Positions 9,688 to 47,168 of a DNA stretch of 47,558 bases are shown piece by piece. The notes beneath the pieces were generated by a model that was given only the letters and a program-made list of their open reading frames with translations, searched no databases and was not told the DNA's origin. Source of the DNA: a virus; the UHGV virus genome UHGV-1376407. The stretch is one strand, 5' to 3'. Position numbers and translations under genes: made by a program. Position 1 is the stretch's first letter. Each line of letters begins with the position of its first letter.

Positions 9688-12600
9688 TATTCTGTTGCCC
9701 TTCTGGTTGCAGTGGTGTGACTGGTAATCGCGTTTGAAATCGGGCCTCCAGCCTCAATATCTGCCACAATCGTCTCAATTGTAACAGACCCGTCACCATT
9801 ATCTCTTGCGGTTGATGATGTAGTTGCTCCGCTGCTGGTATTGGTTACATTATTATAAATAATGATACCACTGCCTCCGCCGGTCAGGTCTTTGTTGCTG
9901 ATAACCTTACCTGAATCTCCTGGAATCATATACTGCTTGCCTGTGCTGGCCTGGAAGATTTCAGGGAGGTTATTCTCGCCGACCTGATACATTGAGCCAG
10001 CCTGCGCAGGTCCACCATTCTTTAATGCCCCAGCAACAGACATTGCTTTAGCCACGCCAACAGTGGAAGCAATGCCAGCCTGTGCGGGTACTGCGTTAGC
10101 GCCACCCGTAGCAAGTGATGTCATAGCTGCTGCTGGCGCCATAGCCGCTGCTATTCCTGCCGCCTGAGTGGCGGTTGCGGCAGATGCTGCTGCCATCCCT
10201 GCCTGCCCCATAATTACCGATTTAAGCCACTCCACACCCATCTGAACGAAAGAGTTAATAACCGCATTTAACACATTGCTCCCTATTGACTGTAACGCCT
10301 CACTAACAGACATTGAACCAGTCAGGATGCCAGTTAAGGCATTGCTTGCGGTTTGCCCAAAAGCATCAAATGCTGCTGCGGCAGCTTGGGTTGCTGCATT
10401 TTGCTGGCTCCATATTTGCCACTGCGTATTAATCAATTCAGTTTGATACTGAGTATCTGCCGCCTTCATTAAAGCAATAGCATCCGTATGAGCAATCACT
10501 CCCGCCATTTCATATTGCTTTATCAATGCTAGTTTTTTTGTTTGCTCATTAACAAGAGCCTGCACTGGGTTAACCTGACCAGCCGCCTCCATGGCTGGCG
10601 TAACGCTCTCATTAGCCCTAATCTGGGCCATCTTAACCTGGTGCTGCTGCTCTAATTGCTCGCTTATCTGATTGTATTGCTGTTGAGTTATCCTTTTACC
10701 ATCAAGGGCTGTTTTCAGGTCTTTCATATCTTGCTGATATGAGGCATTCTCAGATGTTTCAGGGCTTAACTTCTTGGCAGCCGCTTCGGCTTTCAAAGCA
10801 TTTACATTGTCCCACTTCCTGGCTGCGTACTCACCGGCAAGTTTAATCTCTTCCTGGGTCGCTCCTTTGTTTAGGGATTGCTGGGCGTTAAGTATTGCCT
10901 GCGCCCTTGACATCTCATTTGTTGATTCTGCTGAAAGCTCAGACTCTTGCTTTAATTTTTGAATTTTCTGAGCGTTTGACTCAGCCATCTTTGCTGCTGC
11001 GTTTTGTTCTTTCTTATTCTTCTTGATAGCCTCCGTGTTGGTATATGCAGCTGCAGCCTGGTCCATCATTTTTTTTGTGATGGGGTCATCTTTTGACAAT
11101 CCGGCATCTTCAGCTGCATATTGAGCCGCTAATTTTGCCCTTTCTGCGCCTTGCAATTTAGATAATGCAAGATTCCTTTCAGATTGTTTTACAAGTGACT
11201 TCTGCCCGGCTGTCAGGTTGTCTGTTGATGTTTTTAATAATTCAAAATTAAATGCTGCATTAGATGCGCCTGTTGATAAGTCAACCAGTTTATTATAAAG
11301 CTCAATGAGCTCAGGTTTTGCATTTTTAGAAGAATTTATAATTTCTCCAATGCGAATTACAAGGGTTTGAAGTGCCTGCGGTGACGGGTTGTCACTGAGG
11401 TCAGCAAGTTGCTTGGTAAGGCCAAATGCAGCCTCTTCGGAGACGCCAAGTTTTGAAGCAACAGCCCCAACAGTATTACCTATTGAATCAGCTGTGGCCC
11501 TGAAGGCCATTCCCGCCCCATACGCCTCTTTCATCGCCGTGCTGTAATCGCTTGATGTTATATTTAGCGACTTCAGGCGATCATTAAACCCATCAACAGA
11601 TGCGTATCCGCCACTAAGAGCAGAGATGGCTTTATCTCCGAAGCCAATAAATGAGTCGGCGGCATCACTTATAGCTTTTGGCAGTTTCGCTATAGCAGCA
11701 TTATATTCAATTGCAGCCTGGTTTCTTAATATGGTTGCGGCAGTAGCATTCACGCGAGCCAGGTTTGCGTATTTATCTGAGAGCGCAGCAACACCATTAC
11801 TGGAGACAGTAATAACCTTATCCATCGCATCAGCAGCATCTTTGAGTGACTCCATTGCGCTCTTCCCTCCATTAAGGGAAGCGATGAGAGTTCCGGCAAC
11901 AACTGTCGATAGTGCCAGTACAGCGCCAAATACCGCCCCTGCGGGCCCAAATGCACCAGCCAACTGCGAACCTTGCTGGCTAAATGCCACCAGCGCAGAT
12001 TGCCCCCCCTGAACCTGAACGATAAAGTCCTGTATCTGATAGCCACCCTGCTGCATTATATTTTTAAAGTTACCGGTAGACTTTCCGGCGGCCTCGGTGC
12101 CATTTTTCATGTCGTACAGACGACCGGTAAGCTCAGCTATTTTTGCTTTCTGTGCGTCAGTGGCGCTATCCCCTGCACGAAGCTGCGCAGCCAGTATCGC
12201 CGCACTTCTTGCGCCTTTTTCAGCTTGCTCGTCGAGGATTGCGATCTGGTTTCCAAGACCCTCAATCATCCTGTCAATGCCAGAGATCGAGCCACCTGTT
12301 TCAGTTGACTGAGCGCCAAGTGCACGAATTGCCTGAGTGACCTGATTGACTGAGTTTTGAAGCACAAGGCCGGTTGCGTTCGCGGATACCTGCGCCTGCT
12401 GCATCTGTGCGAGCTGTTGGTTAAGGGCTGCAATAACCTGCTCGGCGCCAGTAACGCTGGAGGTCGTAGCCTCCACTGAACTGGCGGCAGTCTTCGACGA
12501 TGAAGCCATATCCTTCAGCGTTGCATCAATGGAGCTCACAATTTTTGCCAGGGCTGAAAGCTCTTTGCCAGATGATGATGCCGCACCATCAAGCTTATCC

Positions 12601-15494: not shown

Positions 15495-15523
15495 TTGACA
15501 GGTTTTGATTGGTGATGTAGATT
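15495..15523 (+). promoter_or_regulatory. box promoter (TTGACA -35, 17-bp spacer, TAGATT -10; TGATGTAGATTTTGA)
   Basis: Exact consensus spacing, upstream of the homing-endonuclease-like gene. Confidence 0.55.
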
Positions 15524-15609
15524 TTGAGTGTGCAGCTAGTACGGCCAGACGAAAAGCGATTGGTTATCGCCTGCTGCATCACTTCAAACCACCTTTAACC
15601 GAGGACTCA

Positions 15610-16491
15610 ATGATGCGCAAGCTAACTACCGAAGAGTTTATTGCCAAAGCTAAAGCGGTTCATGGCGATAAGTATGATTACTCAGTAGCCATATATGTAA
15701 GCGCTCACACCAAAATATCTTTAATATGCAAATCTCATGGTAAATTTCTCCAGACCCCAAACAGTCACCTAAGCGGATGTGGCTGCCCAGCGTGCGCCAA
15801 AAAGCAAAGGCCAATATCAAATCTAATGGGTGTTAATGAGTTCGTTATGGAATCAAGAAAAATACATGGTGATAGATATGATTATTCAGAAGTTAAATAT
15901 AAGAAATCAATAGATAAAGTAAAGATAAGGTGCATGCTACACGGACATTTTTATCAGTCACCAAACAACCACTTGGCAGGTCATGGATGCCCAGAGTGTT
16001 CAAGGAACAAAAAAAGAAACTCACTAGAGTTCATAAAAAAGGCGCATGAAGTTCACGGGGCCGACAAATACATTTACAGTCTTGTCGACTATAAAAACGC
16101 AAACACAAAAGTTTTGATAATTTGCAACAATCATGGGGTCTTTGAGCAGACACCAATCAAACATACCCTTGGTGGAGGATGTCCTGGTTGCGCAAAGTAT
16201 GGATTCGATGAGTCAAAGGTTGGCTTTGTCTACTTCCTGATTAGCGAGTTTGGGATAAAGGTTGGGATATCAAACAACCCATCCCAGCGGCTACAAAAAC
16301 TCAAATCAGCAACCCCGTTCGATTTTCATCTTATCGCAAAAGTAAAAACTACTGGCGACGAGGCCATGCGCAAGGAAAAATATTATCATCACAAATATGA
16401 ATCCGCCTCTCTTACTGGATTTGACGGCGCTACCGAGTGGTTGCGATTCTGTCCAGAATTGATGAATGAGATCATGAATGAGAAGAATTAA
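15610..16491 (+). CDS. free-standing homing-endonuclease-like protein: three tandem ~65-aa zinc-ribbon repeats plus C-terminal T5orf172/GIY-YIG-like domain
   Basis: Three repeats of the pattern EFI.KA..VHGDKYDYS...HG.F.Q.P..HL.G.GCP.C. C-terminal VGFVYFLISEFGIKVGISNNPSQRLQKL matches the T5orf172 signature. AT-rich island on the opposite strand of the structural genes. Start set at ATG 15610 (RBS AGGA). Confidence 0.55.
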   Translation: MMRKLTTEEFIAKAKAVHGDKYDYSVAIYVSAHTKISLICKSHGKFLQTPNSHLSGCGCPACAKKQRPISNLMGVNEFVMESRKIHGDRYDYSEVKYKKSIDKVKIRCMLHGHFYQSPNNHLAGHGCPECSRNKKRNSLEFIKKAHEVHGADKYIYSLVDYKNANTKVLIICNNHGVFEQTPIKHTLGGGCPGCAKYGFDESKVGFVYFLISEFGIKVGISNNPSQRLQKLKSATPFDFHLIAKVKTTGDEAMRKEKYYHHKYESASLTGFDGATEWLRFCPELMNEIMNEKN

Positions 16492-18560: not shown

Positions 18561-18589
18561 TTGACGTAGATTGAGGGTGTAGCTATAGT
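18561..18589 (+). promoter_or_regulatory. box promoter (TTGACG -35, 17-bp spacer, TATAGT -10), followed by a second TGACGTAGAAAC box
   Basis: TTGACGTAGATTGAGGGTGTAGCTATAGT. Heads the 8-gene + accessory operon. Confidence 0.6.
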
Positions 18590-18611: not shown

Positions 18612-18938
18612 ATGTTAGAGGTGATGAAGATGAATGAGTTCAAAGGATACCCCGCCCCGTGGGACATGAGAATCAAAGATGGGATGGCAATCTTTGATTT
18701 TAACCATAAAGGTGAAGTTCCACACTACCGATTTGCTGAATGCGTTGTGTCACTAGTTACCGACGATGAGCCGCAAGATTATCTAATGGCAAACGCGAAT
18801 TTAATTTCTGCCGCTCCTGAGATGCTGGAAGCACTGCAAAATATGGTCGAATCATACCAATATGAGGCATCACCTGATAACCCTACGCTCCTGCAAGCGC
18901 GCGCCGCAATCACCAAAGCGCTCGGAGAATCCCAATGA
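18612..18938 (+). CDS. hypothetical protein, paralog of 53..367 (ANANLISAAPEMLEAL core)
   Basis: Shared N-terminus, core motif and leader sequence with the first ORF of the window. Confidence 0.6.
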   Translation: MLEVMKMNEFKGYPAPWDMRIKDGMAIFDFNHKGEVPHYRFAECVVSLVTDDEPQDYLMANANLISAAPEMLEALQNMVESYQYEASPDNPTLLQARAAITKALGESQ

Positions 18939-19051
18939 TCCGCCACGAAATCCGAAAAGAAGACCTGAAGGCGTGGGATAAGTTCAAAATCAAGCTGGCA
19001 TTAATCGTTATCGGTGTTGCCATTGCTAGTGTATTCGCCTTATCAAAGTGA
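18935..19051 (+). CDS. small membrane protein (38 aa, C-terminal TM helix), ATGA-coupled
   Basis: ATG overlaps the upstream stop. Hydrophobic LALIVIGVAIASVFAL. Not in the ORF track. Confidence 0.35.
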   Translation: MIRHEIRKEDLKAWDKFKIKLALIVIGVAIASVFALSK

Positions 19052-19085
19052 TTGCGAAGTGAAAAAATTCAACGCGGAGGTGAAG

Positions 19086-19730
19086 ATGCATGATTTTATT
19101 AGCCAGCAATCCGGCGAGGTGAAATACCGTGAACCATTTTTTGTGCCTGTTGACGAACTGGTTGTGAGTGAGCCGCATCCAGAAAAAGAGGTTGTGGAAT
19201 TTTTTGTTAGAGAAATGCAGTCCGGCATGAGAATGCCTCCTATTGAGGTTAAGCGACTGGATGATGGGAAGTTTGCCGTCGTCATAGGCAAGGCCAGAGC
19301 CATTGCTTCAATGATGGTTGAATCAAGAGCAGATGAGGAGAAACTTGTACGGTGCAGGATGTATGAGTACAAAAACCTTATGCCAATTTTCAACTCAATA
19401 CAGCGCAGCTCTGGTGATGTTAATGGTTTGTTTTTTAGAATTTGGGGATATAAATTTCTAAAAATGACGGGCATGACTGGCGAGGAGATATCAAGAAAAT
19501 GTAAGAGGAATATGGATGACCTCATCAAATGCATGATTGTAGATTCTATGCCGTGTCACATTAAAAAACTTATCTTGAACAGCACTCTGTCACCATCTCT
19601 GGCGGTGGTCGTTGTGAAAAAGTTTGGTGCGCATGAAGCACATAGGGCCATAACTAAAGCATCAAATGACCCTTCCTTATGGGAAGGAAAGAGAATTACC
19701 CCAAGAATGATAATGAATCATATTGATTAA
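19086..19730 (+). CDS. ParB/Srx N-terminal-domain protein (ParB-like nuclease/CTPase fold)
   Basis: ParB box PPIEVKRLDDGKFAVVIGKARAIA. Start placed at ATG 19086 with GGAGGTG RBS (track ORF starts at 19014). AT-rich. Confidence 0.5.
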   Translation: MHDFISQQSGEVKYREPFFVPVDELVVSEPHPEKEVVEFFVREMQSGMRMPPIEVKRLDDGKFAVVIGKARAIASMMVESRADEEKLVRCRMYEYKNLMPIFNSIQRSSGDVNGLFFRIWGYKFLKMTGMTGEEISRKCKRNMDDLIKCMIVDSMPCHIKKLILNSTLSPSLAVVVVKKFGAHEAHRAITKASNDPSLWEGKRITPRMIMNHID

Positions 19731-19750: not shown

Positions 19751-20566
19751 ATGACATCTCTCGGAAAAATTTACTCAGACAAAGAAACTCGCGGCGGAAT
19801 CGTGGTCAACAAAGGTTATCAGGTTCCTGTCGATCAGCTTTACCTTGAACCTGGATACAACATCCGCGAAGCCGATGAGCAGCACGTTGAATACTTCGCG
19901 CAGTGCTGGGAATCAGGCCAGCCAATCCCGGCGTTAACTGTTATTCCTGATGCCGACGGAAAGCGCATCAAGATTCTTGACGGCCAGCATCGTTATCTTG
20001 GCGCATTGCGTGCCATTGAGCGAGGAGTGCCAATTGCGCGAATTGAGTGCAAAGACTTCACCGGCGATGAGGCGGATAAAATCGCCTTCATGGTGTCTTC
20101 AAGTCAGGGCAGGCAACTCGACCCGCTTGAGCGTGCAAAGGCTTATGTGCGCCTCAAAGGGTTCGGATGGACGAATGAAGAAATCGCCAAAAAAGTAGGC
20201 CGCTCAGTTTCTGATGTGCAGATGCACCTGTCACTTGGTGATGTGCCTGATGCCATCAAGCAGCGAATCAACGCGGGCCAAATCAGCTATGCCAACGCCG
20301 TTGCAGTGGCGCGCGAGCATGGCGATGATGCCGTTAACGTTATTGATGCTGCCGTTGAGGAAGCGAAAGCGCAGGGCAAGGATAAGGTGACGGCGAAAAC
20401 GCTCAAGGCCAAAAAAGTTAAGCCGATTGACCGCCTGATTTGGCTGCTGAAAGGGGCAGACCATATGGTTGTCACTGAGGGTCATGTGGCACAGGAGACA
20501 GAAGAATTTTTGCGCCTTCCTTCTGCGGAGTTGAGTGAAGTGCTGGCGATTCTGGAGAAGCTATGA
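19751..20566 (+). CDS. ParB-like protein with DGQHR motif and ParB-type HTH (DndB/DGQHR-family-like)
   Basis: KILDGQHRYLGALRA replaces the GERRxRA box. HTH GWTNEEIAKKVGRSVSDVQMHLSL. Confidence 0.65.
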   Translation: MTSLGKIYSDKETRGGIVVNKGYQVPVDQLYLEPGYNIREADEQHVEYFAQCWESGQPIPALTVIPDADGKRIKILDGQHRYLGALRAIERGVPIARIECKDFTGDEADKIAFMVSSSQGRQLDPLERAKAYVRLKGFGWTNEEIAKKVGRSVSDVQMHLSLGDVPDAIKQRINAGQISYANAVAVAREHGDDAVNVIDAAVEEAKAQGKDKVTAKTLKAKKVKPIDRLIWLLKGADHMVVTEGHVAQETEEFLRLPSAELSEVLAILEKL

Positions 20567-20772
20567 TGAGTACATCACTGCTGTCTTTGCTAAGAAATGG
20601 TGAATATAGCATCAGAGAAATGGCAAAAATTTTAGGAATATCAAAACATCGTGTTTCGTGGTTCATTGCGGAACTTGAGCGCCGTAAATGGGTAGAGGTT
20701 ACAAGGTGCGCGATATGGCTTCACGATGGAACACGATCAAATAAACCAAATAAATACAGAGTTAAATTATGA
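20563..20772 (+). CDS. small winged-helix/HTH DNA-binding protein
   Basis: YSIREMAKILGISKHRVSWFIAELERRKWVEV. ATGATGA coupling to the upstream gene. Confidence 0.5.
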   Translation: MMSTSLLSLLRNGEYSIREMAKILGISKHRVSWFIAELERRKWVEVTRCAIWLHDGTRSNKPNKYRVKL

Positions 20773-20942
20773 CAGCAGAACAATTCATAGAGAAAAACCT
20801 GCGCGAAAAACTGCCAGGCATCGACAACGCGGCCATAGAGGCTGCAATTACCCACTACAGGCGCAACCAGACTGAAAAGAAGGGCAAGATTTTCGATGAA
20901 TGCATGAAGGTTGCAAAACAACACATGGTGAAGGTGAAGTGA
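20769..20942 (+). CDS. small hypothetical protein (57 aa), coupled on both sides (ATGA, TGATG)
   Basis: Fills the gap between the HTH gene and the clamp-like gene with overlapping start/stop codons. Not in the ORF track. Confidence 0.35.
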   Translation: MTAEQFIEKNLREKLPGIDNAAIEAAITHYRRNQTEKKGKIFDECMKVAKQHMVKVK

Positions 20943-21478
20943 TGAAATTAAAAGTTAGCAAGTTACTTCTTGAAGGCGCGCTGATGTTCCAGGCCAAACA
21001 TGATGTGCGTTACTACCTGAATGGCATTTGCTTTATGCCTGATGGTCGCGTTGCTGCTACTGACAGTCATCGCGCCATGATTGCCAGTAAGCACGAAAAC
21101 AAGATAAAAAGTAACGTCATCGTGTCGATAAGCAAGTCGCCAACTAAGCGCTATTCCTATGCGCTACTGGACACTGAAACAAATATTGTCACTTACCATG
21201 ACGAACATGAAATGATGGTTGGTGCGGGCATTTGTTCTGAAATTGATGGCAATTACCCTGATATTGATCGTGTCATTCCTAAGCAGACCGCACCAGCAGA
21301 GCAGATTGGCTTTAATGCCAAATATCTTGCAGATGTTGAGAAGCTGGCGAAACTGTTTAACCCGAAATTTGAGGCGGTTCGCTTTGAACTGAATGGCAAC
21401 ACCAGCGCCGCCGTCGCAAATATCAGCGCACCAACTGGCGAGACTGCCAAAGTTATTGTTATGCCAATGAGGATTTAG
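20942..21478 (+). CDS. truncated DNA polymerase III beta sliding-clamp (DnaN)-like protein: domain II plus C-terminal half of domain III, no domain I
   Basis: HDVRYYLNGICF...VAATDSHRAMI, YPDIDRVIPK, IGFNAKYLADV and C-terminal VIVMPMRI. These align with E. coli DnaN QDVRYYLNGMLF...VATDGHRLAV, FPDYRRVLPK, IGFNVSYVLDV and VVMPMRL. Start set at ATG 20942 (TGATG coupling). Confidence 0.65.
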   Translation: MKLKVSKLLLEGALMFQAKHDVRYYLNGICFMPDGRVAATDSHRAMIASKHENKIKSNVIVSISKSPTKRYSYALLDTETNIVTYHDEHEMMVGAGICSEIDGNYPDIDRVIPKQTAPAEQIGFNAKYLADVEKLAKLFNPKFEAVRFELNGNTSAAVANISAPTGETAKVIVMPMRI

Positions 21479-21771
21479 TGATGAAAAAGAGAGATGGTGA
21501 AATTAACATTCTGCACAATGATTCTTCTTGTGGGATGCTTATTATGAGAGGAGATTACACAGAAAGCCAAATACTTGATGCGGCAATTAATAGTGGAATC
21601 ATTTCTGATGATGAAAGAAAAGGATGGGAAAACCTTGGTGAGTATGGCAGATATTATCAATCATGGTTTAAAGCAGTTCCTGATGGAAGCGGGCAATTCT
21701 CAACATTTCATCATGCAGTTGATAAAAAACTAAGAGGCGCTTATTTTGCCTCTGTCATAGAGCGCTTTTAA
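21478..21771 (+). CDS. hypothetical protein (last gene of + accessory operon)
   Basis: GTG/ATG start overlapping the upstream stop. AT-rich. Followed by a terminator. Confidence 0.4.
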   Translation: MMKKRDGEINILHNDSSCGMLIMRGDYTESQILDAAINSGIISDDERKGWENLGEYGRYYQSWFKAVPDGSGQFSTFHHAVDKKLRGAYFASVIERF

Positions 21772-21798
21772 AAAAAGCCCCTTTCGGGGCTTTTCTTT
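21771..21798. terminator. bidirectional rho-independent terminator (GCCCC-TTTC-GGGGC, A-run upstream, T-run downstream)
   Basis: Between convergent genes ending at 21771 (+) and 21801 (-). Confidence 0.8.
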
Positions 21799-41968: not shown

Positions 41969-42250
41969 GTGATGCACGCAGAAGGCTCAAAGATGAAGTT
42001 CGTTTATGACCACCTTTCCGCTATGAAGAGCGGGGAGGTGATATCCGTACATTTCGAAAATGATTTATCAGATGCAGTAGTCAGGGGTTACAAAGAGGAA
42101 TGTGGCTTATCTGATATCCCGCCAGAGTATCGAATGAACAGAAACATGTTCCGCTCTTATGCTGCAAAGATCGCAATTGCGCATAACATGAACATCAAAA
42201 CAAAAAACGGGCCAATGGGTAAATTCCTGTACATCTGGAAGGTTTGCTGA
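41969..42250 (+). CDS. hypothetical protein (first gene of replication operon)
   Basis: Strong RBS AAGGAGGAAG. Confidence 0.45.
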   Translation: MMHAEGSKMKFVYDHLSAMKSGEVISVHFENDLSDAVVRGYKEECGLSDIPPEYRMNRNMFRSYAAKIAIAHNMNIKTKNGPMGKFLYIWKVC

Positions 42251-43899
42251 TGAATACATACGAAATTATCGCCATGAAGAAATCAGTTGGTAAATTTGAT
42301 TCATCAACAGACCCGCTGGATGAGGCTGACATTCCTGAATTCAGGGAAAAATACAAGATTCCTCCAGGTTCGCTTGGCGAGTTCATCCAGGAGATAGAGA
42401 AAAACTTCGAGCGCCGTGACGATGGGGAAAAATATAGACTTGTTGGAGCGCTTGGCCTTGCTCAGATAATGGCGGGCAGATTTATTATTGGCCCGACAGG
42501 TAGCAAGTGCTCAACTGGCATTTTCCTTGTGGCTCGATCTGGTGCTGGTAAGCAGGCTCCGGTAAGTTTTATAAAACAATATGCCGAAGCTCTGATGATA
42601 AGCGACCGCCTTTGCACCACGACTGCAACATCATTAAAGCAGATACAGACAAGCATGATTGAAGGTGATGGCTCTCTGCTTTACGTGGTAAACGATGATA
42701 AGCAGCACATTGACTCATGGAATGACCCTCGAAGCGCCTATCTTGGAGGAACTGCCCCGTGGTATCGCGGTTTATCTGATGAGGGTGGGTGGGTCCCGAC
42801 AAGGACAATAATCAGGGATATCGAGGAGAATATGGCTAAAGCCATGAACCCAAAAACGATAGTCAGCGTTGCGATGGCAGAGGGTTGGATTGTTCCGCGT
42901 ATTGGCGGAGCGCAGGATGGGATGATTGATTATAAAAGATTGTCTCAGATGGATCACAGCGTAGGTAGAAACCTGAAAAAAGTCATGGCGGAGCATGAAT
43001 TATGCACGCGAGATGGAGGGATTGAGAACGCGCGATTTATTCCGCTAATCACTGTAACGCCGGTTCAGGGTATTGATGCTGTAAGGTCATGGCAGAAAGA
43101 TGGCGGCATGGGAAGGACGTTGTTTATTCTTGGTCATGGAGATGACGAGGAAATGCCATTGCTCAAAAGAGAGCAGCCATCAGGTGAGGTCAACAGGAGA
43201 ATAGTGAATGAGTGGAAGCAAAGAATCCTTCGCTCAATAACCCGCGTTGAATTTGAAAGCGAAAAGGTAAATGACAGACGTTATGAGCTCACCTGCCATC
43301 TTGAAAAATGTCTTGGGAATGTGGATGGCGTAATTGGCGATGTTGTCCCGCGCGCCGGGCAGATGATTGTAGACCTTGCCTCGATATGCGCATTTGCAGA
43401 CCTTTCCAGCCGTAATGGGATGACGCCTGTTTTATGCGACAGGCATCTTGAATGGGCATATATGACAGTCATTAACCATCTGCGCGCACTTCGTGATTAT
43501 ATCGAAGGTGACGTTGCATTTAGCGGTCTTGAAGAGGACGAGTGGGAGAATATCATAGCCAAAATGAGAAAGGTGATGGCAGGGAAGAAGTTTATTAACA
43601 AGCCTTACACGTCCGTCCTGAAAAGCGGATTATGTCGCGGAAGAATTGAGACAATCATCAAAGCGGCGAATTCAAATCATCTACAGGTGACGCCTGACAG
43701 ATTCATTTCTGAGGTTCTGGTTTCCATTACAGAAAATCGGCACTCACCTATCGATCTTGAGGTATCTGCTATTAATGGTGGGTCAAAAATCGTCTTCAGG
43801 GATGAAGGGTCATGGTCTGGTCTGCGAATGAATGCCTCTGTAAGAAACATACTTTCGTCTGCTGTTAACAGGATGAAATTCATGAGAGGTCTGAAATGA
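42244..43899 (+). CDS. putative replication protein (551 aa, possible P-loop ARSGAGKQ)
   Basis: Large ORF next to the iteron origin, coupled to its neighbours. Confidence 0.4.
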   Translation: MLMNTYEIIAMKKSVGKFDSSTDPLDEADIPEFREKYKIPPGSLGEFIQEIEKNFERRDDGEKYRLVGALGLAQIMAGRFIIGPTGSKCSTGIFLVARSGAGKQAPVSFIKQYAEALMISDRLCTTTATSLKQIQTSMIEGDGSLLYVVNDDKQHIDSWNDPRSAYLGGTAPWYRGLSDEGGWVPTRTIIRDIEENMAKAMNPKTIVSVAMAEGWIVPRIGGAQDGMIDYKRLSQMDHSVGRNLKKVMAEHELCTRDGGIENARFIPLITVTPVQGIDAVRSWQKDGGMGRTLFILGHGDDEEMPLLKREQPSGEVNRRIVNEWKQRILRSITRVEFESEKVNDRRYELTCHLEKCLGNVDGVIGDVVPRAGQMIVDLASICAFADLSSRNGMTPVLCDRHLEWAYMTVINHLRALRDYIEGDVAFSGLEEDEWENIIAKMRKVMAGKKFINKPYTSVLKSGLCRGRIETIIKAANSNHLQVTPDRFISEVLVSITENRHSPIDLEVSAINGGSKIVFRDEGSWSGLRMNASVRNILSSAVNRMKFMRGLK

Positions 43900-44252: not shown

Positions 44253-44286
44253 CAAAAACCCTCCATCAGGAGGGTTTGTTTTTTAG
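44253..44286. terminator. bidirectional terminator (AAACCCTCC-ATCA-GGAGGGTTT + TTTTTT)
   Basis: Strong hairpin between convergent genes. The primase stop codon lies in the loop. Confidence 0.8.
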
Positions 44287-45159
44287 TGCTTCGAATAAAT
44301 CACCAGGTGTGTAAAGCCTTTTCCTTATAGCGCCGCTGTAACGAATATCCTGCCCGTCATCGGTAATCAGTATCGGCAGACCTGCATTCTCTGCGGCGCA
44401 TACCTCATCGAAATTATTATTAATGATGCAGCGCAGTTTTTCTCGCTGCTCACCGCTGACATTGCGTACAATTTCCCACATGTTTTCAGGAGACCAGCAA
44501 CACCAGACATGAGCACCGGTAAGCCGATGCGCTCTCCATGCGTCAAAGTAATCTGCAACCAGGTATGTCCACTCTGTCTTGTCGCCGATGGGTGTCACTG
44601 CGCCGCGTGTAAGCCTTCCGCGAGTGTACTCATGACTGAAACCCGCGCGAAATGACACGCTTTCATCGTCAGCAATGAATGCCACATTGCACGGCATCAT
44701 AGTTCCAGCCATGTAGAGCGGTATCGCCACCAGTTCACCAGTTTTGCCGGTTATGGTGTCATTTCCTGCTTTTTCCAAGATGGACGCCACTTCTGCCTCT
44801 GTTAGGTAGTCAGAAGCATGGTTGACCTTCGGGAGCTGCTTTCTAATCGCCTCAAGTTTTTCGCGTGGGTGCATGTTAAGAAACCCGGCCAATGCCTCCA
44901 TTGACTCCGGAAAAGTCATTCCTGACAGCTTCATTAACCAGGCGATGCCGCTGCCGTTTCCGCACTGGTTGCAGATGGCGCCGCCGTCACCTTTTGTTTC
45001 GAAGTTGTTATCCCACCTAAACCTGTCCTTACCCATGCAATGAGGGCATGGCTGATGCTTTCCATTAAAAACATTCCTGTCAATATTCACTATTGAGAGT
45101 AGAGCAGCCTCCCAGTTTCCTGCCATTAAAGGCTCTATATCCTTCCAGTCGTATCGCAT
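44266..45159 (-). CDS. DNA primase (zinc-ribbon plus Toprim-like)
   Basis: N-terminal zinc ribbon HQPCPHCMGKDRFRWDN...CNQCGNGSG (primase/P4-alpha type). Acidic ILITDDGQD Toprim-like motif. Confidence 0.65.
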   Translation of the reverse strand: MRYDWKDIEPLMAGNWEAALLSIVNIDRNVFNGKHQPCPHCMGKDRFRWDNNFETKGDGGAICNQCGNGSGIAWLMKLSGMTFPESMEALAGFLNMHPREKLEAIRKQLPKVNHASDYLTEAEVASILEKAGNDTITGKTGELVAIPLYMAGTMMPCNVAFIADDESVSFRAGFSHEYTRGRLTRGAVTPIGDKTEWTYLVADYFDAWRAHRLTGAHVWCCWSPENMWEIVRNVSGEQREKLRCIINNNFDEVCAAENAGLPILITDDGQDIRYSGAIRKRLYTPGDLFEALKNKPS

Positions 45160-45179: not shown

Positions 45180-45212
45180 CGTAGATTCAGTCTACTATTG
45201 TGACGTAGATTG
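45180..45212 (+). promoter_or_regulatory. box elements (GCCGTAGATTCAG ... TGACGTAGATTGA) in the primase/helicase divergent region
   Basis: Two CGTAGATT boxes 24 bp apart. Confidence 0.4.
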
Positions 45213-45233
45213 AGCAACACAAAGGTGGATGAA

Positions 45234-47168
45234 GTGCAAAAAATTGATGCAATGATTGCTGAGCTGGATATGGGTAAGCTGCGGGACAGCATCCATACCG
45301 GGGAAATTGAACCGCGACCATATCAGTGGCTGGTATATGAAAAGACAGCTGAGGTTATCCGCAAGTTTGGCAAGCAGCCAAAGCCAAGTTATGTTACCGC
45401 TTCAGTTGGCGCTGGTAAGACCATCATGATAGCCATGATTGCCCGTCGGTTTCAGGATATGGGGTGGGAGGGGCTTGTCATCGCGCGACAAGGCGAAATT
45501 ATTGAGCAGGATGCTGAGGAGCTTTGGAACCTGAGCGTAAAAAATTCTCTGTTTAGCGCATCTCTTGGGCGTAAAGCATATGCCTATCCGCTTATCGCGG
45601 GAACGGAGGGCACAATAATAAATGGTCTTTTTGATAAGACAGCCGATGATGGCACCGTGACGAAATCACTGCTATCAGACTTTTCACCACGCTACATACT
45701 GGTTGATGAATGCCATCAGGTTAACTGGCAGGACATAATATCAGAGCAGCCAGAGACGCAGTACGGTGTCATCATGAATGAACTTAACCGGCGCTGTAAA
45801 GCGAAGTACGGGCATGAGGTGATAGTCATAGGCTACACCGGCAGCCCATTTCGCGGCGTTGAGTCGATAAAGGGGGCTTACTGGAAGCATGAAATAGTCA
45901 ACATCAGCACAAAATACCTTGTCGATCTTGGCTTTCTGGTTCCGACAATTTTCGGCGGCCAGGATATCGAAGACTTGCAATACGACCTGCATGAGTTTGC
46001 CAGTAGTGACGTTGACGGCGTGCAGGACTTCACTGATAGCCAGCTAAAAGAGATGCAGGAAGAAATCCTCAAGCAGGGTACATTGACACAAAGAATTATG
46101 CTCAAAGTCATGGAGCTTACGCGTGACCGTCTCGGCGTACTCATTACCTGCGCCGGTAAAAAACATTGCAAGGAGGCTGCAAAATACTTACCAGAAGGCA
46201 GTTATTCCATTGTTACAGAGGATATGGGGCAGAAAGCCAGACGGAAAGCGCTGAAAGATGCGGCCACCGGGCGCAAAAAATACACGCTGCAAATCGGCTG
46301 CCTGACGACTGGCGTCAACATCCCATATTGGGATACTTCTGTCATCCTGAGAAAAATTATGTCCCTGACACTTCTGACGCAGTTGCTTGGCCGACCAATG
46401 CGCCTTTTAAAGCCTGACCAGATTTCCGCAGGTCTGGTGAAAGAAAACCATCTTTGCCTTGACTTCACCGGAACCATGTTCGAGCTTGGCGGTCTGTACG
46501 AAGACCCTATTCTTGAGGAAGCAGAAGCACAACGCGCAAAACGCAGCGGTGAGCAGGTGCCATGCCCAAAATGCCAGACGATGAACAGCCCGTATGCACG
46601 GCGCTGCATCGGTAAAGATGCAACATCGCCAGATGGTCGTTGCGAGGAGTTTTTCAGCTTTATCCGCTGCGGTTTCGACAAGCACGGAATCCGCATCTTT
46701 GATGATGGATGCGGGGCCAAAAATGACCCTACGGCGCGCTATTGCCGTTGCTGCGACCATGTGCTGCGCGACCCTAATGCGGCGCTTAATGAGCGCGCTT
46801 ATACTGATAATGAATGGACTGAAGTCAAGGATTTCAAGATTGAGCTAACGAAAGATGAGAAGGGCGTTGTTTATCGTTACTTCATCAAGAAAGAAAACGG
46901 CAAAGATGGCTGGGCCAGTGAGGTGTTCTATCCATTTGGCAGGCAGGAGAAGTACCTTAAAAATCAGTTTAAGATTAAAGGATTACTAAACCACGTATCA
47001 GACAGGAATCTGATTGATAACCTCATGAATTGCCACAACGCAAAAGCATTCATGGCGTTCACTGGCCTTATTCGCGCACCTAAACGCATCACGCATCGTT
47101 TTAACGATAAAGGCCGCGATATCATCCACCGCAAGGATTTCATAGGAGAGCAAATTGAAGCAGCTTGA
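45234..47168 (+). CDS. SF2 DNA helicase (DEAH/DECH-box) with C-terminal multi-CxxC zinc-ribbon region
   Basis: Walker A SVGAGKTIMIAMIA, motif II VDECHQV, later helicase motifs. Four CxxC pairs. Start set at GTG 45234 after AAGGTGG (track ORF starts at TTG 45210 inside the promoter box). Confidence 0.75.
   Translation: MQKIDAMIAELDMGKLRDSIHTGEIEPRPYQWLVYEKTAEVIRKFGKQPKPSYVTASVGAGKTIMIAMIARRFQDMGWEGLVIARQGEIIEQDAEELWNLSVKNSLFSASLGRKAYAYPLIAGTEGTIINGLFDKTADDGTVTKSLLSDFSPRYILVDECHQVNWQDIISEQPETQYGVIMNELNRRCKAKYGHEVIVIGYTGSPFRGVESIKGAYWKHEIVNISTKYLVDLGFLVPTIFGGQDIEDLQYDLHEFASSDVDGVQDFTDSQLKEMQEEILKQGTLTQRIMLKVMELTRDRLGVLITCAGKKHCKEAAKYLPEGSYSIVTEDMGQKARRKALKDAATGRKKYTLQIGCLTTGVNIPYWDTSVILRKIMSLTLLTQLLGRPMRLLKPDQISAGLVKENHLCLDFTGTMFELGGLYEDPILEEAEAQRAKRSGEQVPCPKCQTMNSPYARRCIGKDATSPDGRCEEFFSFIRCGFDKHGIRIFDDGCGAKNDPTARYCRCCDHVLRDPNAALNERAYTDNEWTEVKDFKIELTKDEKGVVYRYFIKKENGKDGWASEVFYPFGRQEKYLKNQFKIKGLLNHVSDRNLIDNLMNCHNAKAFMAFTGLIRAPKRITHRFNDKGRDIIHRKDFIGEQIEAA

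Follow-up and report, generated by a model that had tools for sequence, protein, structure and literature searches.

A 1.5-domain phage homologue of the bacterial β sliding clamp that is predicted to keep the partner-binding pocket without the ring

The mini-clamp gene and its retained clamp modules

The virus genome UHGV-1376407, analyzed here as a single stretch of 47,558 nucleotides (the window), is that of a ~47.5-kb siphovirus with 91 to 93% identity to the Klebsiella phages ZCKP2, ZCKP8, 6991, and ZCKp20p and, equally, to the Roufvirus phages pIS4-A and pYD38-A. It carries a gene for a short homologue of the DNA polymerase III β sliding clamp (DnaN), which we call the mini-clamp, as gene 6 of a seven-gene rightward unit flanked by leftward structural genes (Table 1). 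An earlier sequence-only reading had placed this open reading frame (ORF) at exactly these coordinates with a 178-aa product, and all the peptide segments that it quoted are present (HDVRYYLNGICF, AATDSHRAMI, IDGNYPDIDRVIPK, IGFNAKYLADV, and VIVMPMRI). Direct reading shows that the clamp ATG shares bases with the TGA stop codon of orf57, a 57-aa ORF just ahead of it, in the sequence TGATG, and that a Shine-Dalgarno-like stretch lies 3 to 12 nt ahead of it. Many database records give a 192-aa form that starts at an upstream ATG at 20900; it is probably an over-extension, because the homologues begin at the methionine of the ATG at 20942.

Homology to DnaN, proposed in the same reading, is significant in single-sequence and profile searches. 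Enterobacterial clamps are matched by phmmer among the PDB sequences with E values of 3.5e-12 to 7e-12, BLASTP against Escherichia coli β gives 1e-12, and a profile of 89 family members finds E. coli β in the PDB with 6e-27. The identity is lower than the 35 to 40% estimated by eye, as we measured 33% over 163 aligned columns, with 28% in domain II and 36% in the C-terminal module. The protein stays below curated thresholds (19.1 bits for PF02768 and 18.4 bits for PF02767, where the Pfam gathering score is 27, and 46 bits for TIGR00663, where the cut-off is 137.65), and automatic annotation is therefore inconsistent.

The product does not have the three domains (~366 aa) of a full clamp; its 178 aa make up three half-domain modules. 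Since clamp domains are internal duplications, both halves of domain III are possible HMMER matches for the 60 C-terminal residues. Domains were mapped by scoring the family hidden Markov model (HMM) against separate pieces of E. coli β, whose sequence as used here matches the PDB alignments over residues 136 to 296 and 315 to 366. The C-terminal half of domain III alone (306 to 366) scored 26.3 bits and the N-terminal half alone (245 to 305) scored 8.0 bits, which rules out the N-terminal half as the counterpart of the C-terminal module, although HMMER prefers it on intact β. An artificial protein joining residues 128 to 252 to residues 312 to 366 scored 102.8 bits and aligned end to end, while residues 128 to 305 scored 77.2 bits. 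By these scores the mini-clamp corresponds to domain II followed by the C-terminal half of domain III, as had been read from the letters. The distance from P106 (the DGxxPD proline) to P175 (the proline of the C-terminal MP) is 62 to 77 residues in 89/89 aligned members, compared with 121 in E. coli, and the half-domain deletion therefore defines the family.

Structure prediction, which the earlier reading had named as a check for the DnaN fold, gave an AlphaFold2 model with a clamp fold and a predicted local distance difference test score (pLDDT) of 96.9. The model of P0160, a 33%-identical Dhillonvirus-type member, has the same two-helix layout (pLDDT of 97.2), and many phage proteins of 178 to 266 aa with this fold are found in BFVD, with TM-scores up to 0.89. 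According to DSSP, the modeled secondary structure consists of three β-α-β-β-β modules, except that the middle one has no helix. Module 1, with a strand, a helix (residues 7 to 16), and three strands, bears AKHDVRYYLNG and ATDSH, which hold the equivalents of E. coli R152, L155, T172, G174, and H175. Module 2 ends in IDGNYPDIDRVIPK (P242, R246, and V247). In it the channel helix α2' is replaced by the nine-residue loop SKSPTKRYS (aa 64 to 72, nt 21131 to 21157), so that strands 59 to 63 and 73 to 77 have no helix between them in two independent models; Pro67 of this loop is present in 76% of the family. Module 3 contains IGFNAKY (N320 and Y323), a helix (residues 126 to 139), three strands, and the C-terminal VIVMPMRI (V360 to L366).

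Two long helices are left in the mini-clamp models, and they are those that flank the junction of domains II and III. In the clamp topology, a domain draws its forward edge from the N-terminal half and its backward edge from the C-terminal half, which places the three retained modules next to one another in space. They center on the sheet bridging domains II and III, which bears the partner-binding pocket.

By geometric argument, such modules might build a ring of another kind. The half-domains of two subunits would pair on a two-fold axis and rebuild a "domain III," and two of these dimers would close a D2 tetramer with six domain equivalents, giving a sliding clamp whose stoichiometry would be new and which would carry pockets on each face. 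The retained modules are contiguous, radial pseudo-two-folds alternate, four times 1.5 domains makes six, and the exposed core of the half-domain invites self-association. A shortened E. coli product consisting of domains II and III, β*, is also said to act as a trimer. However, without the channel helix of domain II the DNA channel would have gaps, and the contacts of a clamp loader with the N-terminal half of domain III would be missing. Fused or tandem forms were not found among the homologues; the two long matches, P0207 and P0226 (~1000 to 1150 aa, E ~1e-12), are WD40 proteins and false positives of the single-sequence search, whose repeated CFSPDG(R/K) resembles ICFMPDGR. We regard this ring as improbable.

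Interface residues and the partner-binding pocket

Lists of the residues forming the dimer interface and the pocket were taken from a 2024 review (PMC11139829). None of the seven interface residues is in a retained segment: I78, R103, and F106 belong to domain I, and I272, L273, E298, and E304 belong to the N-terminal half of domain III. This upholds the earlier view that a protein lacking these parts cannot form the canonical ring. One role suggested in that reading, a poison subunit, fares worse. In this role the mini-clamp would pair with a host β protomer and make dead-end, open clamps, and it is indeed a close structural relative of host β. However, both groups of interface residues are absent, with the I78/F106 and I272/L273 sides gone, so that no canonical interface remains, and inactivating host β would be self-defeating for a phage without its own polymerase. 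We consider this role very improbable.

Retention of the pocket stood in most respects. Fourteen of the 18 pocket residues are identical to those of E. coli (R152, L155, T172, H175, R176, P242, R246, V247, N320, Y323, M362, P363, M364, and R365). Two equivalents that had been listed as retained are not identical, L177 being Ala45 and V360 being Ile172, and the other two differences are G174 to Ser42 and V344 to Thr154. Family members share an identity of 0.72 with E. coli β at pocket positions and of 0.20 at the remaining ones (permutation p<1e-5), and the peaks of the conservation profile coincide exactly with the pocket motifs. The 89-member alignment favored members with an intact C terminus, and therefore all 128 cluster representatives of 165 to 215 aa were examined without this filter; D.R.Y together with TDGH was found in 90% of them and the C-terminal MPx[RK] in 73%. 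In eight lineages of differing lifestyle, D21, R23, Y24, L26, N27, T40, H43, P106, I122, G123, Y128, K134, M174, P175, and R177 are invariant. Judged from these alignments, both halves of the ring-closing interface have been lost, and selection appears concentrated on the pocket that binds the clamp-binding motif (CBM) of partner proteins.

Family, operon, and genomic settings

The median dN/dS (nonsynonymous over synonymous substitution rates) between the mini-clamp and 15 close homologues is 0.10, and the gene is functional and under strong purifying selection. An exhaustive search of representatives of 50%-identity clusters returned 146 proteins at an E value of 1e-10 or lower; full-length DnaN first emerges at ~6e-11, and 128 of the best 150 representatives have 165 to 215 aa. 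Homologues occur in 245 deposited phage genomes, 239 of them covering at least 80% of the query. Relatives in IMG/VR were found with a 21-sequence alignment and were required to have the exact motif DVRYYLNG, which gave 348 sequences; our context counts rest on 80 of these loci, where the gene is a short ORF of 177 to 218 aa throughout, save one 98-aa fragment. The family is thus old, diverse, and large, in line with the earlier argument against a recent capture of host dnaN. We rejected recent capture, a pseudogene, or decay on the dN/dS of ~0.1 and the fixed length across ~130 clusters.

Existing annotations give the family other names. In most GenBank records the gene goes under "DNA polymerase III beta subunit" or "beta-clamp protein." Hundreds of genomes carry either the label of a full polymerase III β subunit or that of a RusA-like resolvase, and neither is right. 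The mini-clamp matches PHROG 3007 over residues 1 to 178 (E = 1.7e-58), a family labeled "RusA-like Holliday junction resolvase," and this label is repeated in RefSeq phage records (NC_071151.1 and relatives). The protein has no RusA match at an E value of 1 or lower, its only Pfam matches are DNA_pol3_beta_2 and DNA_pol3_beta_3, and the predicted fold is that of a clamp. The RusA-like label is evidently wrong by these profiles and models, and we give a RusA-like resolvase or a decaying gene fragment practically no chance. In the locus L084, a true RusA gene (PF05866, 3.6e-15) adjoins the clamp gene, and this neighbor may be the origin of the mislabel.

Distant homologues (~30% identity over the full length) are also found on the plasmids NZ_CP045061.1, NZ_CP046383.1, NZ_CP114132.1, and others. 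The carriers are large conjugative or non-mobilizable plasmids (150 to 440 kb) of Salmonella, Klebsiella, and E. coli, and the homologues, labeled "hypothetical protein," in some cases stand beside phage-type regulators with Rha or ORF6N domains. A blastn search with a lambdoid copy of the gene gave no match in E. coli genomes, and PADLOC gave no defense-system match. In our literature search we found one paper that used the protein as a phylogenetic marker and none that studied the function or structure of the short form or described its half-domain architecture or the selective retention of the pocket. The mini-clamp is another member of a widespread, already annotated, functionally uncharacterized family.

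In the window, the clamp gene lies in an operon with two ParB-like genes, and orf57 is translationally coupled to it (Table 1). The putative promoter ahead of the operon came from a consensus scan alone, and the total of promoter-like sites across the region is not above the shuffled expectation; expression of the mini-clamp from a host-type promoter is probable. The palindromic terminator is probably bidirectional and would end both the clamp operon and the convergent head-gene transcript. The first ParB-like gene has no Pfam match and no homologue beside the clamp gene in the 80 IMG/VR loci. In the second, we noticed by eye DGQHRYLGA and SQGRQLDPLE, which resemble ParB box II and III motifs. 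The product of orf57 is a candidate clamp partner and has no CBM-like motif.

Table 1. Features of the clamp operon and of the replication genes in the window
Feature	Position	Strand	Remarks
Sigma-70-like promoter	18561..18589	+	TTGACG-17-TATAGT, 10/12; ahead of the seven-gene operon; consensus scan alone
orf108	18612..18938	+	Operon gene 1; phrog_1273
ParB-like gene 1	19014..19730	+	GTG start uncertain; PHROG 1033, E = 2.4e-14
ParB/KorB-like gene 2	19751..20566	+	Pfam HTH_ParB 8.5e-11, KorB 2.7e-6; PHROG 1033, 6e-86
69-aa winged-helix protein	20563..20772	+	MarR/HTH_24-like
orf57	20769..20942	+	phrog_4439; translationally coupled to clamp (TGATG)
Shine-Dalgarno-like sequence	20930..20939	+	GAAGGTGAAG; read directly from the sequence
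Mini-clamp gene	20942..21478	+	178 codons + TAG
Module 1, aa 1-50	20942..21091	+	N-terminal half of domain II; DSSP, conservation profile, pocket mapping
Module 2, aa 51-116	21092..21289	+	C-terminal half of domain II; two independent models
Module 3, aa 117-178	21290..21475	+	C-terminal half of domain III; HMM test, pocket mapping
orf97	21478..21771	+	Last operon gene; phrog_28696; starts at GTG 21478 or ATG 21481, on the clamp stop
Intrinsic terminator	21773..21794		Palindrome AAAAGCCCCTTTCGGGGCTTTT, perfect hairpin AAAAGCCCC-TTTC-GGGGCTTTT; between convergent clamp operon and head genes
DNA primase	44266..45159	-	Zinc ribbon
SF2 (superfamily 2) helicase	45210..47168	+	Pfam ResIII, Helicase_C

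The replication and recombination set of the genome comprises a primase, an SF2 helicase, a single-stranded DNA-binding protein (SSB), an exonuclease, and a recombination ATPase. No DNA polymerase was found in the annotation of a close relative, in Pfam scans of the large ORFs, or by tblastn with two phage PolA proteins, so that the replication of this phage must depend on host Pol III. Neither that annotation nor the Pfam scans of the large ORFs showed a clamp-loader gene in the window. Near the primase and helicase genes, a 551-aa protein (42244 to 43899, plus strand) has no Pfam or NCBIfam match and matches a PHROG "DNA primase" profile in part (positions 343 to 711 of 788); it may be an uncharacterized replication protein. 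Among the tail genes, on the opposite strand, a 328-aa ORF (15505 to 16491, plus strand) has a DUF4379 treble-clef zinc finger, CapR, and a GIY-YIG-like T5orf172/MUG113 domain and looks like an insertion of the homing-endonuclease type. No tRNA genes were found in the whole window, although the annotation of KP591P3, a close relative, lists tRNA-Ser, tRNA-Met, and tRNA-Arg.

The settings of the gene in other phages differ. The sequence-only reading had taken the neighboring ParB-like genes as strengthening a DNA-clamp theme. Among close relatives this linkage is firm, with the second ParB-like gene, orf57, and the clamp gene together in 48 of the 49 IMG/VR loci of at least 60% identity, where orf57 directly precedes the clamp gene, but it is absent from all 31 more distant loci. 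In Serratia phage Eta the gene order is ParB, clamp, and helicase, and this helicase is homologous to the SF2 helicase of the window (tblastn E = 7e-30). Lambdoid temperate phages carry the clamp gene between cII (PF05269) and the replication gene O (PF04492), or ahead of a DnaC/IstB-like loader; in the lambdoid IMG/VR contigs L058 and L074 (~9300 to 11800) it occupies the cII-O slot of the early rightward operon. In Kagunavirus and Dhillonvirus the gene is alone, antisense among head genes and far from the replisome genes, and the replisome of these phages is complete and T7-like (PolA, a gp4-like primase-helicase, and a gp2.5-like SSB). The Kagunavirus copy has a ribosome-binding site and terminators of its own. 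The family thus spans unrelated replication systems of the lambda O/P type, the SF2 helicase and primase type, and the T7-like PolA type. The pocket is the sole constant across settings, while neighbors and replication strategy vary.

Possible function and comparison with known systems

From sequence and models, the mini-clamp looks like a ring-incompetent β derivative that is near the smallest piece still presenting the CBM pocket. The minimal scaffold would be the sheet between domain II and the C-terminal half of domain III with its two flanking helices, and the helix-less half-domain would serve as support. Free in the cytoplasm or loosely on DNA, the protein would bind motifs of the QL[SD]LF type in the canonical pocket, intercept host clamp-binding proteins in competition with the host β ring, and re-route the host clamp network to the phage's advantage. 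The captured clients could be Hda, MutS/MutL, Pol II/IV/V, or free δ, which have one weak motif each, or parts of Pol III. Clients with a single motif and low avidity would be displaced more readily than the multivalent Pol III holoenzyme, and this would reconcile the presence of the gene in both Pol III-dependent and Pol III-independent phages.

The partner is more probably a host protein than a phage one, because the phage replication proteins are unrelated between lineages and no phage CBM-like motif was found. Regular-expression scans of the reading frames of the window and of two carrier PolA proteins gave nothing convincing, which is weak negative evidence because the motif is degenerate. 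Background plausibility comes from a monomeric β variant whose binding to δ is ~50 times tighter than that of the ring (PMC11139829). Phage lambda raises host DnaN through the small RNA (sRNA) PreS (bioRxiv 10.1101/2024.10.31.621285), and clamp supply therefore matters to Pol III-dependent phages. We consider it likely that the mini-clamp binds CBM through its retained pocket as a non-ring protein. That the biological effect is competitive capture of host clients is a tentative proposal, to which we give somewhat less than an even chance, and for the explanation as a whole we see the odds as balanced.

Several points weigh against capture of host clients. In cellular clamps, too, the pocket residues rank with the best conserved, and their conservation in the family may come in part from packing of the interdomain sheet and not from ligand binding. 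Pol III α and ε and the clamp loader would likewise be drawn away by a general pocket competitor, and this phage and the lambdoid carriers, where no polymerase was found, need them; the model therefore requires selectivity or a modest dosage. The exposed core of the half-domain may need a partner or self-association. Finally, the family is mildly basic, with a median isoelectric point (pI) of 8.4 compared with 5.25 for E. coli β, and lysines are conserved in its replacement loop and on the helices that are left, which would fit DNA binding better than a purely soluble sponge.

This basicity leads to the main rival explanation, a loader-independent DNA tether. Here a basic concave face would bind DNA in the manner of herpesvirus UL42 while the pocket holds host Pol III (or Pol I or ligase), and the protein would be a positive replication factor for phages without a polymerase. 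The pI range of the family is 5.6 to 9.6, with 71% of the members above 7.5, where the equivalent segment of E. coli β has 6.1. What would be the inner face has conserved basic residues at positions 11, 19, 65, 70, 134, 137, and 142, K134 being among the residues invariant in all eight lineages. Replication modules are led by the gene in the arrangements CII-clamp-O, clamp-DnaC-like, and ParB-clamp-helicase, no polymerase was found in this genome, and Kazlauskas and Venclovas (PMC3201878) found that clamp homologues without clamp loaders tend to be basic, like non-ring processivity factors. However, the net charge is just ~+2 (+1.9 for the present protein, pI 8.45), 11% of the members are acidic, and of the three channel helices to be expected two are left. 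Kagunavirus and Dhillonvirus also keep the gene; they have a complete T7-like replisome, carry the gene away from their replication genes, and have a PolA in which no CBM-like motif was found. We therefore rate the tether as unlikely, while capture of host clients is the explanation that we favor.

The β clamp is the hub around which polymerases, mismatch repair, Hda, and the clamp loader are organized in bacteria, and antibiotics are aimed at its pocket. Extended to the family, the favored explanation would make these 1.5-domain proteins natural pocket decoys with which many unrelated phages soak up or re-route host CBM proteins, a generalization that we hold more doubtful than capture by the mini-clamp itself. 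If it is true, such decoys are a previously unrecognized takeover route for the bacterial replication and repair hub, the mini-clamp would reveal which clamp clients a phage most needs captured or silenced, and it would offer a minimal soluble pocket domain for binding and screening work. If the mini-clamp binds nothing, it is still a well-defined clamp fold cut at a half-domain boundary. Its main interest is as a testable lead on phage interference with the clamp hub.

Known systems share single features with the mini-clamp. E. coli DnaN (PDB 1MMI and 2POL) is homologous, has the same pocket, and ends in the same C-terminal MPMR(L/I), but it is acidic, whereas the mini-clamp is basic, and it has 366 aa, compared with 178 aa in a protein without domain I, the N-terminal half of domain III, and the channel helix α2'. 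E. coli β* is reportedly a UV-induced 26-kDa product of an internal start in dnaN (Skaliter, Paz-Elizur, and Livneh, 1996) that begins at about residue 135, close to where the mini-clamp does, and keeps the pocket. It is also said to keep all of domain III including the interface helix, half of which domain the mini-clamp lacks, and to oligomerize and stimulate Pol III. The herpesvirus factors UL42, UL44, BMRF1, and PF-8 have two full domains and a strongly basic DNA face and bind their own viral polymerase, in contrast to the 1.5 domains, mild basicity, and bacterial-type CBM pocket of the mini-clamp, in whose genome no phage polymerase was found. Engineered monomeric β (I272A/L273A) in complex with δ (PDB 1JQL) does not dimerize yet takes a CBM-type plug (δ L73/F74) in subsite I, with the ~50-fold tighter binding given above. 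However, this laboratory mutant has the three domains complete, and with them the loop in the N-terminal half of domain III that δ also touches.

Short phage homologues of the polymerase III β subunit have been reported before, five of 12 phage homologues being short (Kazlauskas and Venclovas, NAR 2011, PMC3201878). Like the mini-clamp, these are phage β proteins without the N-terminal domain, from genomes without clamp loaders; the main text of that paper does not describe a deletion of half a domain, a selectively conserved pocket, a lost interface, or how large the family is. Other phage factors are also aimed at the β-clamp hub, namely, Twort Gp168 (PDB 7EVP), Mu MuC (PMC12867686), and the lambda sRNA PreS. 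These bind, use, or up-regulate the host clamp, whereas the mini-clamp is a copy of part of it. Compared with characterized clamps, the mini-clamp appears to be new in being a 1.5-domain, ring-incompetent, and pocket-preserving protein.

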